Shown here piece by piece: positions 3,436 through 11,611 of a stretch of DNA of 64,000 nucleotides (its first letter is position 1; every line of letters starts with the position of its first letter). The notes beneath the pieces were generated by a model. The model searched no databases and had not been told where the DNA came from. It saw only the letters and a program-made list of their open reading frames with translations. Position numbers and translations under genes: made by a program. This DNA comes from Vicinamibacteria bacterium (GTDB lineage: Bacteria > Acidobacteriota > Vicinamibacteria > Fen-336 > JAGNNV01), in contig JAIBCN010000138.1 in assembly GCA_019694155.1 (NCBI GenBank), forward strand, positions 1,832 to 65,831, written 5' to 3'.

Positions 3436-4178
3436 GAGCGAAGGACGCTTTCGATGACGCGGGAGGAGTTCAAGGAGCGGCCGAGATGGGTCTCGATGAG
3501 TTCCCGGTGGAACCTCGCGATGGGGGCGAGGTCGATGCCTTCGGTCCGCTCCGCGAAGTTGGCGGGCGACAGCCGCAGGGCCGATCGAAGCAGCGCGCGC
3601 GAGTCCGAGTCCAGGATCTCCGCCCGCTTCGAGCCGCAGTTCGTGCAGACCACCCGGCCCGCCGAGCGATCGAAGGCGAGCCCCCCGGTCACCGACTGCC
3701 GGCAGTTGAGGCACCGGGCCAGAGAGGGATAGAGCCCGTGGAGCTTCAGCGTCCAGGCCTCCGCGTAGCGCATGACCGCGGTTCCGTTGGAGCCGCGCTG
3801 CTTGAGGGCGGTCACGCACGATCGGCCGAGGCGATAGGCGTCGTCGTCCCGGGCATCGGGGGGCAGGAAGGCTTCGAACAATTCGGCGCAGTATTCCAAC
3901 GCGAGGAGGCTTTCGAGATTGCTGTTCGGGGGTTCTGAGGAACGGAGGAGTTCGACCGTGCCGAGCCGGAAAAGTTCCGTCCCTTCACGACCGTACAACG
4001 CTGTACGCACTTCCGAAAGGGGCTGGAGCGACGACTGGTAACGGTCGCCGGGGCCGCGCGCGCCCTTCGCGACGGCCCTCAACTTCCCCCTGCTTCGGGT
4101 GAGGAGCACTACAACAACACTCATTTCCCCCAGCGGGAACGTCCGCAGGACCAGAGCGTCCGTGGTGAGAGGAGGCAT
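3432..4178 (-). CDS. recO: DNA repair protein RecO
   Basis: 248 aa with an N-terminal OB-fold region and a C-terminal CxxC...CxxC zinc motif (CLNCRQS...CTNCGS). Conserved recO-glyQ-glyS synteny; 4-nt overlap with the glyQ start. Confidence 0.8.
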
Positions 4179-4550
4179 TGTGACGGCGCCTTACGAGGTT
4201 TGACGAGCCCAAGTCTGCGAGCACCCATCGGCCCTTTCGAAGCAGGGCGAAACCTAACATGAAAGGCCCCGTTCTTCCTCCTCTTCCGGGCCTGACTTCA
4301 GCATTTTGAAGCCTCCCCGGGGGGCGGAGCCCGTCGTTTCCGGGCCGTCGTTCATTGAAGAGTGAAACTTTTCGAGGCCCTGCTCCATCCAAAGCCGCAA
4401 CGCCGGACGTAAACTGTCCGGCAAAGCCGTGGTCCAAAGGAGCCGGAGGTCGGCTCCGGACCGCACACCCATGGTCCCCTTTCAGGATTCGCGCCCGGCG
4501 ACGCGGGGAGTCGCATAGAAGCGGGTGCGTCCCTTGGAGTTAAGCAATCT

Positions 4551-5003
4551 ATGAAGCGTCGAGATTTCACCAAAGCAATCGCGGGCATCGCCGCCGGCGT
4601 CGTGGCCGGAACCAGGGCCTTCGCGGATGACAAGCAGAAGCCCGCGGAGAAGGCGAAGCAGCACGGCTGCGGCGGCAAGGACGGCTGCGGCGGCGAAAAG
4701 GGCAAGGCGGCGGCGGCCGGCGACAAGGCCAAGCACGCCTGCAAGGGAATGAACGAGTGCAAGGGCCAGGGCGCCTGCAAGACCGGCGATGCCGGCTGCG
4801 CGGGAAAGAACTCCTGCAAGGGCAAGGGCGGTTGCGCCACCGCGGCCAAGCACGACTGCAAGGGCAAGAACGAGTGCAAGGGCCAGGGCGGTTGCAAGAC
4901 CGGCGACAACAAGTGCGCCGGGAAGAACTCCTGCAAGGGCAAGGGCGGCTGTCAGGTGCCCGTCCAGCACGACGCCAAGCCCGCGGCTCCGGCCAAGAAG
5001 TAA
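4551..5003 (+). CDS. Cys-rich RiPP precursor peptide (bufferin-like, BUF_6/12Cys-type) with twin-arginine signal peptide
   Basis: MKRRDFTKAIAGIAAGVVAGTRAFA (RRxF Tat-like signal). The core carries 14 Cys in two 39-aa repeats H[AD]CKG[MK]NECKGQG[AG]CKTGD..CAGKNSCKGKGGC. GGAG sits 8 nt before the ATG. It lies immediately upstream of the DUF692/DUF2063 genes. Confidence 0.8.
   Translation: MKRRDFTKAIAGIAAGVVAGTRAFADDKQKPAEKAKQHGCGGKDGCGGEKGKAAAAGDKAKHACKGMNECKGQGACKTGDAGCAGKNSCKGKGGCATAAKHDCKGKNECKGQGGCKTGDNKCAGKNSCKGKGGCQVPVQHDAKPAAPAKK
4731..4964 (+). repeat. 117-nt (39-codon) in-frame tandem duplication inside the precursor core
   Basis: Two near-identical nucleotide copies starting at ~4740 and ~4857 (tgcaaggg..aacgagtgcaagggccagggcg..tgcaagaccggcga...aagaactcctgcaagggcaagggcgg). 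Confidence 0.7.
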
Positions 5004-5029
5004 CCCGGCTCTTTCAGCCGTTCGCACCG

Positions 5030-5060
5030 GCCGCGGGGCTTCTTCCCCGCGGCTTTTTTC
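5030..5060 (+). terminator. intrinsic terminator / attenuator between precursor and modification genes
   Basis: GCCGCGGGG-cttctt-CCCCGCGGC perfect 9-bp stem followed by TTTTTTC. Located 27 nt after the precursor stop and 21 nt before the DUF692 start. Confidence 0.55.
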
Positions 5061-5080
5061 TTCTACACTGGATTTCGATC

Positions 5081-5977
5081 ATGACCTCCCCCTCAGCAGG
5101 CAATCGCTTCGGCTTCAAGGACCTGGGCATCGGGATCGGACTTCGCACCGTCCACTATCCGCACATCCTGTCGACCTGGCCGAAGATCGACTGGTTCGAG
5201 GTCCTTTCCGAGAACTACATGGACACGGGAGGCCGGCCCGCCTACGTCCTGGACCAGGTTGTCGAGCGCTACCCGGTGGCGCTTCACGGCGTCTCCATGT
5301 CCATCGGCAGCACCGACCCGCTGAACCGCGAACACCTGCGCAAGCTCAAGGCCCTGGCCGAACGCACGAAGGCCCACTGGGTTTCCGATCACCTCTGCTG
5401 GACCGGCGTCCTCGGCCGCAATACGCACGACCTTCTCCCCATGCCGTACACGGAGGAGGCCCTCGCCCACACCATCAAGCGGGCGAAACAGGTGAGCGAG
5501 ATCCTGGAACGGCCCCTCGTCCTCGAGAACCCCTCCTCGTATGTCGAATTCACGGGCTCGTCGATGCCCGAATGGGTGTTCCTGGCCCGCCTGGCCGAAG
5601 AGGCCGACTGCGGCCTGCTCCTCGACGTGAACAACGTCTACGTCAGCTCCTTCAACCACCGCTTCGACCCTGTCGAGTACATCAACGCGATCCCCGCGGA
5701 CCGCGTCGTCCAGTACCACCTGGCGGGGCACACCAACAAGGGCACGCACATCATCGACACTCACTCCGATCACGCGATCGACGAAGTGTGGAACCTCTAC
5801 TCCCTCGCCTGCCGGCGCACCGGCCTGGTGGCGACCCTCTACGAATGGGACGACGACATTCCGGCCTTCGATGTGGTGCTCGCGGAAGCGCGGAAGGCGG
5901 ATGCCTTCCGGAAAGCCGTGAGCCCGAAGGGCGGGCGTCCGCGGACGACACGGCCCGTCCCCGTGAGCGCCGCCTGA
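5081..5977 (+). CDS. MNIO (multinuclear non-heme iron oxidase) DUF692 / MbnB-like RiPP maturase
   Basis: FGFKDLGIGIGLRTVHYPHI...VSDHLCWTG...LENPSSYV...LLDVNNVYVS is the characteristic DUF692 TIM-barrel family. ATG at 5081 is in the frame of track ORF 4757..5977. Confidence 0.9.
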   Translation: MTSPSAGNRFGFKDLGIGIGLRTVHYPHILSTWPKIDWFEVLSENYMDTGGRPAYVLDQVVERYPVALHGVSMSIGSTDPLNREHLRKLKALAERTKAHWVSDHLCWTGVLGRNTHDLLPMPYTEEALAHTIKRAKQVSEILERPLVLENPSSYVEFTGSSMPEWVFLARLAEEADCGLLLDVNNVYVSSFNHRFDPVEYINAIPADRVVQYHLAGHTNKGTHIIDTHSDHAIDEVWNLYSLACRRTGLVATLYEWDDDIPAFDVVLAEARKADAFRKAVSPKGGRPRTTRPVPVSAA

Positions 5978-5978
5978 C

Positions 5979-6833
5979 ATGCGTCTTTCAAGTCTCCAGC
6001 GCTGGATGCAGTCGGTGGTGGTGCATCCCGGCACCACGGAGCAGGCCCTGCGATCGCGGAACGCCGCCCTTCATCTGAAGCCGGCCAGGCTCGAGTCGGT
6101 GCTTCTCCCCTCGAAGACTCTGAGCGCGGCCGAGCGGATCGCCATCTATCAGGAGATGTACCCGTTGCGGATGCGCGACGCTCTCGCCGCCGACTACCCC
6201 GGCCTCGAGCACTTCCTCGGGAACCGCTTCTGGGACTTCGTGACCGCCTACACGAGCGCCCACCCCTCGAAGGGCTACACCCTGAATCGACTCGGCGACC
6301 ATGTGCCAGGGTTCCTCGCCCGTCAGAAGAAGCTCAAGCCCCGAGGATTCCTTGCGGACCTGGCGCGCCTGGAGCTCGCCATCACGGAGTGCTTCGATGC
6401 GCCTGAAGCCGGACTGCTGCGCGCCGAGGAGATCGAGCGAATCGAGCCGGCGCGGCTCTCGGGGATGAAGCTCCTGACCGCGCCTTCGCTGCGCCTCGTC
6501 GAACTCGAGTGGAACGCGGCCGACTACCTCGACACCATTCGCGACGAGGAGCATCGTCATCCCAAGGCCAGGCGCGCGCGCTCCTTTGCGGCCGTGGTGA
6601 GGCGACAGTACTCCGTGTATCGCTTCCCGCTGACGGAGCCCGAGTTCCTGGTGCTGTCGGACCTCCGGGACGGGCGATCGATCTCGAACGTCGTCGAACG
6701 GGCTCTTGGCCGTCGAGGCTCACGCCGGGCCTCGGCCGCGGATTTCCCAGGGTGGTTTCGACGCTGGACCTCAGAGGGCGCATTCTGCGGAGTTCGGCCT
6801 GCGCGAGGTTCCGCCTCAGTCAATGCCCATTAA
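5979..6833 (+). CDS. DUF2063 partner protein (MbnC/BufC-like) of the MNIO enzyme
   Basis: ATG overlaps the DUF692 stop (TGACATG). The N-terminal ~100 aa matches the DUF2063 family (LQRWMQSVVVHPG...AIYQEMYPLRMRDALAADYPGLEHFLG). Confidence 0.85.
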   Translation: MRLSSLQRWMQSVVVHPGTTEQALRSRNAALHLKPARLESVLLPSKTLSAAERIAIYQEMYPLRMRDALAADYPGLEHFLGNRFWDFVTAYTSAHPSKGYTLNRLGDHVPGFLARQKKLKPRGFLADLARLELAITECFDAPEAGLLRAEEIERIEPARLSGMKLLTAPSLRLVELEWNAADYLDTIRDEEHRHPKARRARSFAAVVRRQYSVYRFPLTEPEFLVLSDLRDGRSISNVVERALGRRGSRRASAADFPGWFRRWTSEGAFCGVRPARGSASVNAH

Positions 6834-6885: not shown

Positions 6886-6920
6886 TGCCTTGACATCGAG
6901 GCGCTAGTCTGGATACCATA
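6886..6920 (+). promoter_or_regulatory. AT-rich putative sigma70-like promoter upstream of the SPFH gene
   Basis: TTGACA at 6886-6891 followed by an AT-rich stretch (gatatcac), in an otherwise ~68% GC genome. GGAG lies 6 nt before the ATG at 6943. Confidence 0.3.
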
Positions 6921-6942
6921 GTGATATCACTTGGAGATCACT

Positions 6943-7821
6943 ATGACCCAGACCATCAGAACCGAAAAGGCCGTATCCACGCTTCCGGGGTTGCTCATGC
7001 TGCCCGTCCTGCTTGTCGCCGCCGCCGCCTTCTTCCGGTTCGGAGTCGCGGCCATCCAGGGCGGCGGACCCCTGGGAGGGGTGCTTTTCTTCCTGGGAGG
7101 GGTCATCTGCTGCTTCTGCCTGGGCGGCCTCTTCGTGGTGAATCCCAACGAGGCGCGAGTGCTCCAGCTCTTCGGCGACTACGTCGGCACCGTGAAGGAG
7201 GACGGCCTGCGCTGGGCGAATCCCTTCTATACCAAGCGATCGATCATGCTCCGCGTGCGCAACTTCGAGAGCGCCAAGCTCAAGGTCAACGATCACGACG
7301 GCAACCCCATCGAGATCGGCGCGGTCGTCGTCTGGAAGGTCGTGGACACCGCGGAGGCGTGCTTCGAAGTCGACAACTACGAGCACTACATGAACGTGCA
7401 GACCGAGGCGGCGATCCGCAACCTCGCGAGCCACTACCCCTACGACGCGCATATCGAAGGCGAGTTCTCCCTGCGCGGCAGCACCGACGAGGTCGCGGCC
7501 CGGCTCAAGACCGAGATCCAGGCGCGCCTGGAAAAGGCGGGCGTGCGCGTGATCGAGGCCCGCATCTCCCACCTCGCCTATGCGCCTGAAATCGCCTCCG
7601 CCATGCTGCGCCGCCAGCAGGCGGGCGCCATCATCGCGGCGCGCCAGCGCATCGTCGAGGGCGCCGTGGGCATGGTCGAGCAGGCGCTCGACCTGCTCCA
7701 GAAGTCCGATCGGGTGAAGCTCGACGAAGAGCGCAAGGCGGCGATGGTGAGCAATCTCCTCGTGGTTCTCTGCGCGGATCGCGAGGCCCAGCCAGTAGTC
7801 AACACCGGATCGATCTACTGA
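6943..7821 (+). CDS. SPFH/band-7 domain membrane protein
   Basis: N-terminal TM helix followed by an SPFH core ([63 protein letters not shown]) and a coiled-coil tail. Confidence 0.8.
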
Positions 7822-7824
7822 GGA

Positions 7825-8031
7825 ATGGCCGAGCGCAAGCCGTTTCTCCTGCGTCTCGACGAGAGGACCTTCCTCGCCCTGAAACGCTGGGCCGACGATG
7901 ATCTGCGCTCCATCAACTCCCAGGTCGAGTTCCTGCTCCGCCGTGCGCTGGAGCAGGCAGGCCGATTGAACCGCGAGGCCACGGAACCGGAAGCTCCGAA
8001 ACCGGAGACGGGCGGCGGCGACAAAATTTGA
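7825..8031 (+). CDS. small ribbon-helix-helix (Arc/CopG-like) protein
   Basis: 68 aa. KPFLLRLDERTFLALKRWADDDLRSINSQVEFLLRRALEQ fits an RHH beta-strand plus two helices. The start abuts the SPFH stop (TGAggaATG), i.e. coupled. Confidence 0.5.
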   Translation: MAERKPFLLRLDERTFLALKRWADDDLRSINSQVEFLLRRALEQAGRLNREATEPEAPKPETGGGDKI

Positions 8032-8055: not shown

Positions 8056-9087
8056 TTGCGGGTACCTGTGAAGTTCAACGACCTCGCGATCGAATCGATC
8101 GCTTACGAGCTTCCGCCCGTGGCGGTCTCCACCGAGCAATTGGTGCGCCGTCTCGATCCCGTGCTTCGCAGGTTCAAGATCCCGGTCGACGCGATGCTGC
8201 AGCTCACCGGCATCATCGAGCGTCGCTTCTGGCCGCGCGGTCATCCCATGCATCAGGCGGCCACGGACGTCGCCAAGCGCGCGATCCAGCGCGCCGGCAT
8301 CACTCCCGGACAGGTCGGTATCCTGATCAGCACCTCGGTCTCGAAGGATTATCTCGAGCCCTCGATGGCGAGCCTCGTGCACGGCGACCTCGGCCTCACC
8401 CAGGAGTGCCGCAACTTCGATCTCGCCAACGCCTGCCTGGGTTTCCTGAACGGAATCGAGGTCGCGGGCCGGATGATCGAATCGGGCGTCGCGGACTATG
8501 CGCTCCTCGTCGACGGTGAAAGCGCCGGCGACGTGGTGGAGGCGACGATCACGCGCCTGCAGGACCCGAACACCACCTTGCGCGATTTCTGGGAAGCCTT
8601 CGCGACCCTCACTCTCGGTTCCGCCGCGGTGGCCATGGTTCTCACCAAGGGCTCCCTCTCCCAGACCACGCACCGCGTGAACGGCTGCGTCTCGCTCGCC
8701 GACACCGCGAATTCCCGGCTGTGCATGGGCACCGCCGAGCGCATGGTCACCGACTCCACGCGCCTCCTCAAGGCGGGCGTCGTTCTCGCGCAGAAGACAT
8801 GGGGAGTCGCTTCCAATCAGCTGAACCGCTGGTCGGAGCAGGGCATCGGTCACTACATCTGCCATCAGGTGGGCGCCTCTCACATGCAGGCGCTCGTCGA
8901 GGCCCTCGGGATCAACTTCGCGAAGTGCGTCCTCTCCTACCCCACCCACGGCAACGTCGGCCCCGCCGCGGTGCCGCTCACCCTGGCTCTCGCCACGGAG
9001 TCGGGCCGGGTGAAGGAAGGCGATCACGTGGCGCTCATGGGCATCGGCTCGGGCCTCAACGTGACCATGATGAGCGTGACCTGGTAG
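8056..9087 (+). CDS. FabH-like thiolase / 3-oxoacyl-ACP synthase III family (OleA-like condensing enzyme)
   Basis: Cys-His-Asn triad motifs are present: NACLGF, ICHQVGASH and THGNVGPAAVPLTLA. The likely real start is the GTG at ~8068 (VKFNDL). Confidence 0.8.
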   Translation: MRVPVKFNDLAIESIAYELPPVAVSTEQLVRRLDPVLRRFKIPVDAMLQLTGIIERRFWPRGHPMHQAATDVAKRAIQRAGITPGQVGILISTSVSKDYLEPSMASLVHGDLGLTQECRNFDLANACLGFLNGIEVAGRMIESGVADYALLVDGESAGDVVEATITRLQDPNTTLRDFWEAFATLTLGSAAVAMVLTKGSLSQTTHRVNGCVSLADTANSRLCMGTAERMVTDSTRLLKAGVVLAQKTWGVASNQLNRWSEQGIGHYICHQVGASHMQALVEALGINFAKCVLSYPTHGNVGPAAVPLTLALATESGRVKEGDHVALMGIGSGLNVTMMSVTW

Positions 9088-9155
9088 GCCGGAGTCACCC
9101 CGAGGCGCCCTCCTCCGGATCTGCGGCCGCCACTCCCTAAGAAGGCACCTTCAAC

Positions 9156-10019
9156 GTGGCAACCCCGGCCTGGCGCGACCTCTTCCCCTTTGAAAGCCGG
9201 ACGCTCCAGGTTCCTTCGGGCCGCCTCCACTACGTCGATGAAGGCCCCCGCACCGCGGACCCCATCCTCTGCCTTCACGGAAACCCCACCTGGGCGTTTC
9301 ACTACCGGCGCCTGATCGCGGAAGCGCGGCCCTTCCATCGGGTGATCGCCTTCGACCACATGGGCATGGGCCTCTCCGATCGGCCGACGAACTTCGCCTA
9401 TACCCTCGAGGGTCATGTGAAGAACGCGGTCGCCTTCGTCGACGCGCTGGACCTGAAGAAGATCACTCTCGTGGTCCACGACTGGGGCGGCGCCATCGGC
9501 ATGGGTATGGCGCTTGCCCGGCCGGAGCGCATCGCGCGGATCACCGTGATGAACACCTCCGCCTTCTTCATCCCCCGGCTGCCGAAGCGCATCGCCATCT
9601 GCCGCGCCGGGGTTCTCGGTGAGTTCATCACCCGGGGCCTCAACGCCTTCGCCCGCGCCGCCACCACCATGACCACCTCCATCCCTCTCGCGCCCGAGGT
9701 GAAGGCCGGGTACCTGGCGCCCTACGCTTCGTGGCGGCGGCGGATCGGGATCTGGAATTTCGTCCGCGACATACCGATGGAGCCGGATCACCGCTCGCGC
9801 GCCACCCTCGCGAAGATCGACCTTGGCTTGAAGTCCCTCCAGAAGCCGGTGCAGATCCTCTGGGGTGAGCGCGACTGGTGCTTCACCCCTCAGTTCCGCG
9901 AGGAGTGGCAGGCCCGGTTCCCCCGCGCCTATGTTCACAAGTTCGATGACGCCGGCCATTACCTGATCGAAGACGAACCCGGTGGGGTGATCGCGCGGAT
10001 TCGCGACTTCGCGTCGTGA
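9156..10019 (+). CDS. alpha/beta hydrolase, haloalkane-dehalogenase-like (OleB-like)
   Basis: HGNPTWAFHYRRLI plus the nucleophile elbow HDWGGAIGMG is the HLD-family signature shared by OleB. Confidence 0.8.
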   Translation: MATPAWRDLFPFESRTLQVPSGRLHYVDEGPRTADPILCLHGNPTWAFHYRRLIAEARPFHRVIAFDHMGMGLSDRPTNFAYTLEGHVKNAVAFVDALDLKKITLVVHDWGGAIGMGMALARPERIARITVMNTSAFFIPRLPKRIAICRAGVLGEFITRGLNAFARAATTMTTSIPLAPEVKAGYLAPYASWRRRIGIWNFVRDIPMEPDHRSRATLAKIDLGLKSLQKPVQILWGERDWCFTPQFREEWQARFPRAYVHKFDDAGHYLIEDEPGGVIARIRDFAS

Positions 10020-11611
10020 ACGTCGCCGACCTGCTCGCGGACTCGGCCCGCAAGGCGCCGGATCGCGACGCCATCATTGCGCCGGACGGGCGGTCCGGCT
10101 GGACCCGGATCCGCTACGACGCGCTCGACGCCGCGGTCACCGCCCACGCACGCGCGCTGAGGTCGGGTGGAGTTTCACGCGGCGAACTCGTCCTGGTAAT
10201 GGTGCCGCCCGGCATATCCCTCATCACTCTCTTCTACGGAATCCTCCGCCTCGGCGCGGTGCCCGTGATGATCGACCCCGGAATGGGGATGCGCGCCTTC
10301 ATGAAATGCGTGGAAACCACGGGAGCCAGGACGCTCGTCGGCGTCCCCAAGGCCCACGTCGCGCGACTCGTGTTCCCTCGCCCGTTTTCGTCGATCGAGC
10401 GGAAGTTCGTGATCGGCTCATCGTTCCTGGGCGCCCTCGGCCGCGCGTTGAAGCCCGTGGACGCAGGCGGGCCCGAGGCGACGCCAGTTCGCGAGGATCT
10501 TGGGCGGGACGATCTGGCCGCCATCCTCTTCACCTCGGGCAGCACCGGGCCGGCGAAGGGCGCGCGCTACACCGTGGGCAACTTCTTCGCCCAGCGTGAC
10601 GCCTTGCAGGCTCTCTACGGGTTCCAGCCCGGCGAGGTGGATCTCGCCGCCTTCCCTCTCTTCTCGCTGTTCGACGCGGCCTTCGGGATGACGAGCGTCA
10701 TTCCCGACATCAACCCCGCGAAGCCTGCGGAGTGCCGGCCCGAAAAGATCGTCGAGGCCATTCGCGCGCATCGCGCTACCTCCGCGTTCGGATCCCCCGC
10801 CATCTGGTCGCGGGTCGCCCCGTGGTGCGCCGCCAATGGCGTCGTGCTCCATGGCCTCAAGCGCGTCCTCATGGCGGGAGCCCCCGTGCCCCTCAAGCTC
10901 GTTCGCGCCATGCGCCCGATCCTGCCCGAGGGCGGCGACGTCCATACGCCCTACGGGGCCACCGAGTCGCTGCCCGTCGCGACCATCTCCGGCCGCGAGG
11001 TCGAAGCCCTCGGCGCGGCGGTGGAGGCGGGCGCGGGCACCTGCGTGGGCCGCCCCGCGTCGACCATCGATCTGCGATTGATTCCGATCCGCGACGAGGC
11101 CGTCGCTTCGATCGAGAGCGAGCCCATGCTCGGCACAGGAGAGGTGGGCGAGATCTGCGTGCGCGGAGGCGTCGTCACCCGCGCTTATCACAACCGCGAG
11201 GAGGCGACGGCCGTCTCCAAGATCGGGGCGGGTGATCTCACCTGGCATCGCATGGGCGACCTTGGATACATCGATGCGGACGGACGCCTCTGGTTCTGCG
11301 GCCGGAAGGCAGAGGCCGTGTGGACCGCGGAAGGGCCGATCTTCACGGATCGGATCGAGTGCCGCTTCTCCGGCGAGCCGCGGTGGCCGCGCGTCGCGTT
11401 GGTTGGCGTGGGACCCAGAGGGCACGCTCGCCCGGTACTGGTGCTCGAGGGCGCGGACGACGAGGGGCTGCGGACCGAGGCGCGGCGGATCGGGGGAATC
11501 GCGGACTTGCGCTTCCACCCCCGTTTCCCCGTGGACCGCCGTCACAACGCGAAGATCCATCGGCTGGATCTCGCGAAATGGGCGGCCGCGGGAACGCCCA
11601 ATCTTCGATAG
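10016..11611 (+). CDS. AMP-dependent synthetase/ligase (OleC-like beta-lactone synthetase family)
   Basis: Adenylation motifs TSGSTGPAKG and YGATE. The GTG start overlaps the hydrolase stop (GTGA), i.e. coupled. 531 aa. Confidence 0.8.
   Translation: MNVADLLADSARKAPDRDAIIAPDGRSGWTRIRYDALDAAVTAHARALRSGGVSRGELVLVMVPPGISLITLFYGILRLGAVPVMIDPGMGMRAFMKCVETTGARTLVGVPKAHVARLVFPRPFSSIERKFVIGSSFLGALGRALKPVDAGGPEATPVREDLGRDDLAAILFTSGSTGPAKGARYTVGNFFAQRDALQALYGFQPGEVDLAAFPLFSLFDAAFGMTSVIPDINPAKPAECRPEKIVEAIRAHRATSAFGSPAIWSRVAPWCAANGVVLHGLKRVLMAGAPVPLKLVRAMRPILPEGGDVHTPYGATESLPVATISGREVEALGAAVEAGAGTCVGRPASTIDLRLIPIRDEAVASIESEPMLGTGEVGEICVRGGVVTRAYHNREEATAVSKIGAGDLTWHRMGDLGYIDADGRLWFCGRKAEAVWTAEGPIFTDRIECRFSGEPRWPRVALVGVGPRGHARPVLVLEGADDEGLRTEARRIGGIADLRFHPRFPVDRRHNAKIHRLDLAKWAAAGTPNLR

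Follow-up and report, generated by a model that had tools for sequence, protein, structure and literature searches.

We analyzed a 64,000-nucleotide (nt) stretch of DNA (hereafter the window) from contig JAIBCN010000138.1 of a Vicinamibacteria metagenome-assembled genome (MAG; a soil member of Acidobacteriota), whose open reading frame (ORF) map places a three-gene cluster, bufABC, at positions 4551-6833 of the forward strand. In order, the three genes encode (i) a Cys-rich precursor of 150 amino acids (aa), (ii) an MNIO (DUF692) enzyme, and (iii) a DUF2063 partner, and their identities and family membership are established by matches to curated hidden Markov models (HMMs). Against the NCBIfam model NF050166 (BufA2 family periplasmic bufferin-type metallophore), the precursor scores 62.6 bits with four matched stretches, just above the cut-off of 60, and this margin is narrow, with some clear homologs falling just under the same cut-off. 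The enzyme scores 359.8 bits against NF050167 (MNIO family bufferin maturase, BufB; cut-off 310), whereas the NCBIfam HvfB, ApyH, MbnB, and ChrH models all score it under their cut-offs. Because both the precursor and the enzyme pass the curated BufA2 and BufB models, we assign the cluster to the bufferin type and read it, with a probability of roughly 0.8 for the family and the general mechanism, as a bufferin-2 type bufABC operon (BUF_6/12Cys, 'Cys-Lys' captophorins). An original prediction, made from the DNA letters and an ORF list, had proposed a bufferin-like cluster for a ribosomally made, post-translationally modified peptide (RiPP) with a precursor of the 6/12-Cys style; the two equivalog models, the Pfam MNIO and DUF2063 models, and the two 6-Cys domains of the precursor all bear this out, and the MNIO lies within the bufferin clade, a placement on which that prediction had been made to depend.

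The two maturation proteins carry further marks of this assignment. The solved structure nearest to BufB is 3BWW (E = 2e-43), whose LERDFN segment aligns with YEWDDD of BufB (residues 254-259), so that the catalytic Asp is followed by an Asp and not by a Phe. MNIOs with 'Cys-Lys' substrates, BufA2 among them, have an Asp at this place, and the EGKCG (Lys-Cys) enzymes have a Phe (PMC13097082); the Asp at this substrate-Lys site of BufB therefore supports its assignment as a Cys-Lys MNIO. The bufC gene starts 1 nt past the bufB stop codon, and its product matches the HvfC model weakly (21.5 bits; cut-off 142), while of the two parts of a PME-type 1 partner, a DUF2063 N-terminal domain and an RRE-like C-terminal domain, the former was verified with Pfam. 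At NCBI, sequences identical to BufB and BufC carry the accessions MBX7185936.1 and MBX7185937.1 (Vicinamibacteria MAG), with no annotation beyond 'DUF692 domain-containing' and 'DNA-binding domain-containing', respectively. The exact precursor sequence is absent from a collection of 15 billion proteins, and the deposited annotation probably either omits bufA or gives it a different start.

The 80 genome loci whose BufB is most similar belong mostly to Acidobacteriota, Planctomycetota, and Polyangiaceae, with Vicinamibacteria MAGs (85-92% identity) at the top of the ranking, and most of them keep the bufA-bufB-bufC order. Among 82 fetched loci, 75 have a BufA match, in most cases as a Buf2-like gene directly upstream of bufB, and 77 have a DUF2063 homolog adjoining bufB. 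One Vicinamibacteria genome, MAG SOY_65_metabat_89, holds two bufABC loci (L004 and L008), whose BufB proteins are 88% and 85% identical to that of the window and whose precursors are 12-Cys proteins with twin-arginine (RR-type) signals. Gene order is rearranged in four Planctomycetota loci (L050, L062, L064, and L074), where the Buf2-like gene lies ∼1.6 kb downstream of bufB and not upstream; in two of them (L050 and L074), bufC follows ∼1.8 kb further past the Buf2-like gene, which differs from the canonical A-B-C order.

The precursor contains 14 Cys (residues 40, 46, 64, 70, 76, 83, 89, 95, 103, 109, 115, 122, 128, and 134), the last 12 of which form its core and are invariant in an alignment of 60 homologs. 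These 12 lie in two 39-aa repeats with six Cys each, which are identical at 31 of 39 residues and are mirrored in the DNA by a 108-nt direct repeat (4727-4834 and 4844-4951; period 117 nt, 87% identity). An additional Cys pair lies ahead of the first 6-Cys domain, after the signal peptide, in a prelude whose CGGxxGCG motif is found in ∼25 of 334 family members, spread over several lineages and several signal types. The mature peptide, as released at the predicted AFA|DD site, comprises 125 aa, among them 27 Lys, 26 Gly, 19 Ala, and 14 Cys, and contains no Arg; the only Arg residues of the whole precursor, Arg3, Arg4, and Arg22, are all within the signal peptide. The 14 Cys, the two repeats, the CGG prelude, and the Lys/Gly-rich core are thus present as first described, but they do not set this precursor apart from its family in the way that was claimed, since the BUF_6/12Cys family is defined by 6 or 12 Cys (PMC11626156) and 12-Cys forms, which are duplicated 6-Cys domains, make up ∼10% of Buf2 precursors (PMC12452194).

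The precursor signal and its variants

Signals of the twin-arginine translocation (Tat) pathway follow the consensus (S/T)-R-R-x-F-L-K, with a weakly hydrophobic h-region and often a basic c-region. The precursor begins with K-R-R-D-F-T-K, followed by 13 uncharged residues and then by R-AFA, with cleavage predicted after AFA, and in this it has the features of the Tat consensus at the sequence level. When all ORFs of at least 80 aa in the window were considered (six frames, all start codons), the precursor was the only one to pass the Tat-motif test, and the twin-arginine motif is therefore unlikely to be a chance match.

The motif is conserved well beyond this locus. With a test that demanded RR-x-[FL]-x-[KR] and then an uncharged run of 12 residues or more, we found it in 85 of the 120 closest homologs, as well as in 47 of 141 additional representatives (chosen at 50% identity), 24 of which also carry a lipobox. 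In the 60-sequence alignment, all 50 RR-type signals retain both Arg residues and the Phe at +2, and a Lys at +4 is usual. When all collected sequences are counted, RR occupies the dibasic site in 188, KK in 11, RK in 6, and KR in 4, so that RR is preferred although the mature parts are extremely Lys-rich. Furthermore, the uncharged run has a median length of 15 residues in RR-type signals versus 21 in non-RR signals, and is closed by a Lys or an Arg in 74% of the RR-type signals. We regard the precursor signal as Tat-like and its export through Tat as probable. The original prediction had presented such a signal as a departure from the bufferins; its Tat-like character stands, whereas its singularity does not, as much of the Buf2 family shares the signal, which is not special to this locus.

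Several variants of the signal occur among the relatives. A sister group of 12-Cys precursors (L016, L019, L021-L023, L025, L026, L028, L030, L032, L033, and L075; P0030, P0054, and others) has MKKGDLTxKAIGLAxAGVLAGS in place of MxRRxFxK, with a longer uncharged stretch that contains more Leu, and seems to have exchanged an RR-type signal for a non-RR one in evolution, its BufB and BufC being equally similar. A second, Buf2-like subfamily with ∼10 Cys, from Planctomycetota and some Acidobacteriota (L042, L047, L048, L050, L052-L054, L056, L058, L059, L061, L064, L068, L073, L074, L078, and L080), has a conserved LNRRDFxKLTxAAxGG signal, in most members a C-terminal amphipathic tail (W.KAR..FE..MKKAGK.FGPAP), and in several a lipobox (GC) after the signal; the lipobox-bearing members look like Tat lipoproteins. 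Whether Tat-type signals go with a particular Cys number was also considered, but the homologs showed no clear trend and the idea was rejected. Equally similar BufB and BufC proteins thus serve RR-type, KKGD-type, and lipoprotein-type precursors; therefore, the RR pair would not be needed for recognition by the enzymes, which argues that it is a feature of export rather than of enzyme recognition.

The bufferin papers call these signals Sec (general secretory pathway) signals throughout, and their main texts contain neither 'Tat' nor 'twin-arginine' (PMC11626156, PMC12452194); a 2025 survey with SignalP 6 assigned lipoprotein signals to 16% (PMC12452194). The bufferin authors named as an open problem what keeps Sec from exporting the peptide prematurely, ahead of its modification. 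Full-text literature searches, which do not cover all journals, returned nothing relevant that pairs Tat or twin-arginine with bufferin, MNIO, or DUF692. The Tat-like signal in the Buf2 family, as judged from motif conservation, appears to be genuine and widespread, and we did not find it reported in the bufferin literature searched.

Maturation, export, and the bufA-bufB hairpin

In Caulobacter bufferin 2, the four central Cys each show a −4 Da shift (5-thiooxazoles), whereas CysI and CysVI are unmodified and probably form a disulfide, and the peptide is both copper-induced and copper-protective (PMC11626156). All characterized MNIO-PME1 systems install 5-thiooxazoles and bind copper, as argued in PMC13097082. 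We infer the chemistry and the copper binding of the present peptide from these relatives. The 150-aa precursor would be made in the cytoplasm, and its modification would also be cytoplasmic because neither BufB nor BufC has a signal peptide. There, the two proteins would oxidize the central Cys of each 6-Cys domain to 5-thiooxazoles, by analogy with the Caulobacter peptide four per domain and approximately eight in total. The 25-residue signal peptide would then direct export and be cleaved after AFA, upon which a disulfide would link the first Cys of each domain to the last (two in all, by the same analogy), and the released Lys/Gly-rich peptide of ∼12 kDa may buffer copper in the periplasm, as the Caulobacter phenotype suggests. 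Tat export is strictly post-translational, and would therefore leave time for cytoplasmic maturation ahead of export. For the family, the balance tips slightly toward a large Buf2 branch, made up of this locus, many Acidobacteriota, and the Planctomycetota subfamily with both Tat motif and lipobox, that is exported through Tat after cytoplasmic maturation. That the peptide would leave the cytoplasm already loaded with metal, as was first suggested, is pure speculation.

Several observations weigh against the proposed mechanism and its Tat route. The h-region hydrophobicity of RR-type signals barely separates from that of non-RR signals (2.24 versus 2.30, p = 0.04). The Pfam model TAT_signal did not match the precursor or eight test sequences, even at E ≤ 10, and when 38-aa N-termini were searched in isolation, the NCBIfam matches were weak and all far under the cut-offs, although they went mostly to Tat-signal families, which speaks for Tat (of 50 N-termini, 15 matched formate_TAT, 5 TAT_signal_seq, 4 the Csp1 model 'TAT_Cys_rich', and 4 HmcB). 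Searches with E. coli TatA and TatC sequences (tblastn) detected no tatA or tatC, either in the window or among the 82 fetched loci, a result that is uninformative given the small part of each genome sampled. An AlphaFold2 model of the precursor built on the 60-sequence alignment is of low confidence (mean predicted local distance difference test score 47, predicted template modeling score 0.16), and BufC matched no solved structure by sequence or profile search. The same bufferin-2 cluster could accordingly work with Sec export, in which case its RR-x-F-x-K motif would supply just the positive charge of a Sec n-region or belong to the leader that BufB and BufC recognize. All bufferin signals have been described as Sec-dependent, that of BufA1 works as an export signal (PMC11626156, PMC12452194), and the authors have preliminary evidence that the signal peptide belongs to the BufBC recognition sequence, although Sec export has been demonstrated experimentally for BufA1 only (PMC11626156). 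The shortness of the signal (25 aa), an h-region nearly as hydrophobic as that of the non-RR relatives, and a core predicted to be disordered, which is not a classic folded Tat cargo, are likewise in keeping with Sec. However, a Sec n-region needs only charge, yet RR outnumbers KR, RK, and KK together by 188 to 21 in Lys-dominated proteins; the Phe at +2 and the Lys or Arg at +4 are conserved as well, a basic residue closes the h-region in 74% of RR-type signals, and the service of close BufB/BufC pairs to KKGD-type or lipoprotein-type precursors tells against a requirement of the enzymes for RR. We consider Sec export the less likely route for this precursor. Far less probable still is that the precursor is no RiPP at all but an unmodified, metallothionein-like periplasmic protein that binds metal through thiolates, with the DUF692 and DUF2063 proteins acting elsewhere. 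Its core is indeed rich in Cys, Lys, and Gly, a metallothionein-like role has been raised for six-Cys peptides in an Antarctic metagenome study (PMC8692599), and a sizeable share of Buf2 precursor genes does not adjoin an MNIO gene (PMC12452194); but the Buf2-like gene is directly upstream of bufB in most fetched loci, both curated equivalogs are passed, the homologous 6-Cys peptide of Caulobacter is modified at four Cys, and the Buf1 phenotype in that organism needs bufA, bufB, and bufC.

The balance between precursor and enzyme messages raises a second choice of readings. Between bufA and bufB, an 85-nt spacer folds at −28.9 kcal/mol (z = −2.98 relative to dinucleotide shuffles) into a hairpin whose stem-loop proper spans 5029-5054, and the strong hairpin with a T-run that had been noted between precursor and enzymes is thus present. 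It recurs in related loci: among 62 bufA-bufB spacers, 48 form a hairpin of 8 bp or more shortly past the end of bufA, and over these 62 spacers the median folding z is −3.2, with 81% under −2. The stem sequences vary by lineage while the form is kept (for example, GGCCGCGGGG..., AGAGGCCACGGC..., and GACGGCCGCGGG...), and this recurrence of form across lineages supports a conserved role in raising the precursor message over the enzyme message. A hairpin between precursor and enzyme genes is a familiar arrangement in lantibiotic operons. Most likely, the hairpin acts as a leaky terminator or as a 3' stabilizer that raises precursor mRNA over enzyme mRNA. It may be no attenuator, however, and serve instead as an exonuclease-protective 3' stem-loop of the bufA segment, with or without processing of the bufABC mRNA, or else simply end a monocistronic bufA transcript, bufBC then having a promoter of its own. 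The scarcity of T-rich tails, seen in only 21-26 of the 62 spacers, counts against attenuation and makes the choice between termination and mRNA stabilization uncertain. In the same direction, ∼20 nt separate the hairpin from the start of bufB, with no obvious Shine-Dalgarno sequence among them. On the other hand, the window and its closest relatives have five to eight T within 10 nt after the stem, which is the classic form of an intrinsic terminator, and a promoter scan found no promoter-like site between 5003 and 5081, so that we rate a role other than attenuation as possible but rather doubtful. All three readings yield the same outcome, a surplus of precursor message.

Upstream region and neighboring genes

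Features within and around the cluster are listed in Table 1. The two boxes of the candidate promoter upstream of bufA, in which GAAACTT and TCCAAA are separated by 17 nt, resemble the RpoE-type (extracytoplasmic function, ECF) promoter consensus; both are conserved, with a variable spacer, in the window and in L001, L003, L004, L005, L007, and L008. A sigma-70 scan upstream of bufA returned nothing. Since buf1 and buf2 of Caulobacter are under the ECF sigma factor SigF (PMC11626156), ECF control of bufABC would fit that regulation, and we propose it tentatively by analogy.

The leader that follows contains an invariant GUCCCC and a nested stem in which GCGCCCG/CGGGUGC encloses GCGAC/GUCGC with a GGGGA loop. 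It also has a near-palindrome, with the consensus CGCTTCGAAGCG and the form CGCATAGAAGCG in the window, and includes the Shine-Dalgarno sequence GGAG at 4536-4539. RNAalifold predicts 30 pairs, eight of them with compensatory changes, and GUCCCC and the likewise invariant GGGGA might base-pair mutually or with the GGAG of the Shine-Dalgarno sequence. Rfam gave no match on 4150-5120, and the matches of a covariance model of the leader (R1) were limited to its seven training loci, which are close Vicinamibacteria relatives.

Table 1. Positions of the bufABC genes, their parts, and adjacent features in the window
Feature	Position	Strand	Description	Basis
Candidate promoter (tentative)	4363-4394	+	boxes TGAAACT (4363-4369) and ATCCAAAG (4387-4394)	conserved in 7 Vicinamibacteria loci
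Conserved 5' leader element	about 4465-4550	+	~90 nt	alignments and RNAalifold in 7 loci
bufA2-type precursor gene	4551-5003	+	150 aa, 14 Cys; begins MKRRDFTKAIAGIAAGVVAGTRAFA	ORF; NF050166
Signal peptide, Tat-like	4551-4625	+	residues 1-25; MK-RR-D-F-T-K, h-region AIAGIAAGVVAGT, c-region R-AFA	motif conservation
Optional Cys-pair prelude	4662-4694	+	HGCGGKDGCGG, residues 38-48 (Cys40, Cys46)	insertion relative to most homologs
6-Cys domain, repeat 1	4728-4844	+	residues 60-98	direct DNA repeat; identity to repeat 2
6-Cys domain, repeat 2	4845-4961	+	residues 99-137	direct DNA repeat; alignment
Intrinsic-terminator-like hairpin	5029-5064	+	10-bp GC-rich stem, 6-nt loop, then TTTTTTCTTCT	fold; recurrence
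bufB, MNIO (DUF692) maturase gene	5081-5977	+	298 aa	NF050167; PF05114 MbnB_TglH_ChrH, E = 1.8e-107
bufC, DUF2063 partner gene	5979-6833	+	284 aa	Pfam DUF2063, 50.3 bits (gathering score 27.2)
SPFH/Band_7 membrane protein gene	6931-7821		downstream of bufC	Pfam
RHH-like gene	7825-8031		68 aa; downstream of the SPFH gene	weak: RHH_5, 19.8 bits (gathering score 26)

The neighbors of the cluster are genes of housekeeping or lipid type. Upstream of it, on the opposite strand, lie recO, glyQ, and glyS, while downstream of it come the SPFH gene, the small ribbon-helix-helix (RHH)-like gene, and genes for a β-ketoacyl synthase III (KAS III)-like protein, a hydrolase, and an AMP-ligase. The SPFH gene and the tightly coupled RHH gene form a two-gene unit that some Vicinamibacteria have as an insertion between bufC and the KAS III gene. 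Only in the five closest loci (L001, L003, L005, L006, and L007) are they found after bufC; in L004, which is otherwise syntenic, the same KAS III gene stands directly after bufC, and L004 and L008 both lack the pair. Because of this restriction, of the absence from L004, and of a promoter-like site at 6890-6919 ahead of the SPFH gene, the two genes appear to be lineage-specific, unrelated neighbors and not parts of the cluster; on the same distribution, the idea that they replace DoxX functionally was rejected. The region 8056-11611 holds a run of genes, also conserved in L001 (4185-9595), for a KAS III-like protein, an α/β-hydrolase, an AMP-binding enzyme, a CoA-transferase, and an isochorismatase-family protein, which may constitute a small lipid or secondary-metabolite pathway unrelated to bufABC.

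No DoxX gene follows bufC at the window locus, and among 40 related loci whose downstream ORF was scanned with Pfam, only one has DoxX after bufC. The founding buf2 operon of Caulobacter also lacks DoxX, which is dispensable even in buf1 (PMC11626156). While the gene content that was first read from the window, SPFH and RHH in place of DoxX, is correct, its interpretation as a departure from the family is not borne out, and a three-gene bufABC appears to be the norm in this clade.

Relation to known systems and meaning for the family

The closest known counterpart is bufferin 2 of Caulobacter vibrioides (bufA2B2C2), with which the cluster shares the order of precursor, MNIO, and DUF2063 genes, the lack of DoxX, the 6-Cys pattern with Cys-Lys motifs, the cleavable N-terminal signal, and the passing of the family HMMs. 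It differs from that system in its duplicated domain (12 core Cys), in the additional Cys pair in CGGKDGCGG, in the twin-arginine type of its signal (where Sec has been reported), and in its host, which belongs to Acidobacteriota and not to Pseudomonadota. With bufferin 1 (DUF2282; bufABCD with DoxX and SigF/NrsF), it has in common the MNIO and DUF2063 maturation proteins and, by family, a periplasmic copper-buffering peptide made with a signal, but its precursor is not a DUF2282 protein (no Pfam match), has 12-14 Cys rather than 4, and is accompanied neither by DoxX nor by adjacent genes for sigma and anti-sigma factors.

Other MNIO products are more distant. Oxazolin, fontiphorin, and gonophorin (EGKCG; HvfABC, FonABC) are likewise Cys-rich, secreted, and copper-related peptides with 5-thiooxazoles from MNIO-PME1 systems (PMC13097082), whereas the precursor described here has no EGKCG repeats and its BufB scores 250.1 bits on the HvfB model, under the cut-off of 360. 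Methanobactin (MbnABC) is also a copper-binding RiPP whose Cys are modified by a DUF692/MNIO enzyme, but BufB reaches only 51.6 bits on the MbnB model (cut-off 325) and its partner is a DUF2063 protein, not MbnC; moreover, methanobactin has a leader that is not a signal peptide, an oxazolone-thioamide chemistry, and export and uptake genes of its own. A functional analog only is the Tat-exported copper storage protein Csp1, which is Cys-rich and copper-binding and has a twin-arginine signal, copper binding being inferred for the present peptide. The Csp1 fold is a four-helix bundle, and its Cu(I) is bound by unmodified thiolates; Csp1 is no RiPP, the mature parts are not homologous, and the weak matches of 4 of 50 N-termini to its model run through the signal region.

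As a gene cluster, the locus contributes little that is new, domain duplication and the absence of DoxX being already known for Buf2 and ordinary, and its main interest lies in the family-level Tat question. The hairpin that recurs behind bufA adds a minor regulatory feature to the picture of the family. If the Tat motif is functional, the export step as described would need revision for a part of the bufferin family, and Tat would provide a mechanism that orders maturation before export, answering the question of premature Sec export that the bufferin authors raised. It would also matter for heterologous production, in the choice of both host and signal peptide. As far as the literature found reaches, Tat-exported Buf2 peptides would, if this is true, be the first RiPPs to use Tat, and the sister lineages in which KKGD or a lipobox has taken the place of RR would represent natural experiments in the switching of export routes.

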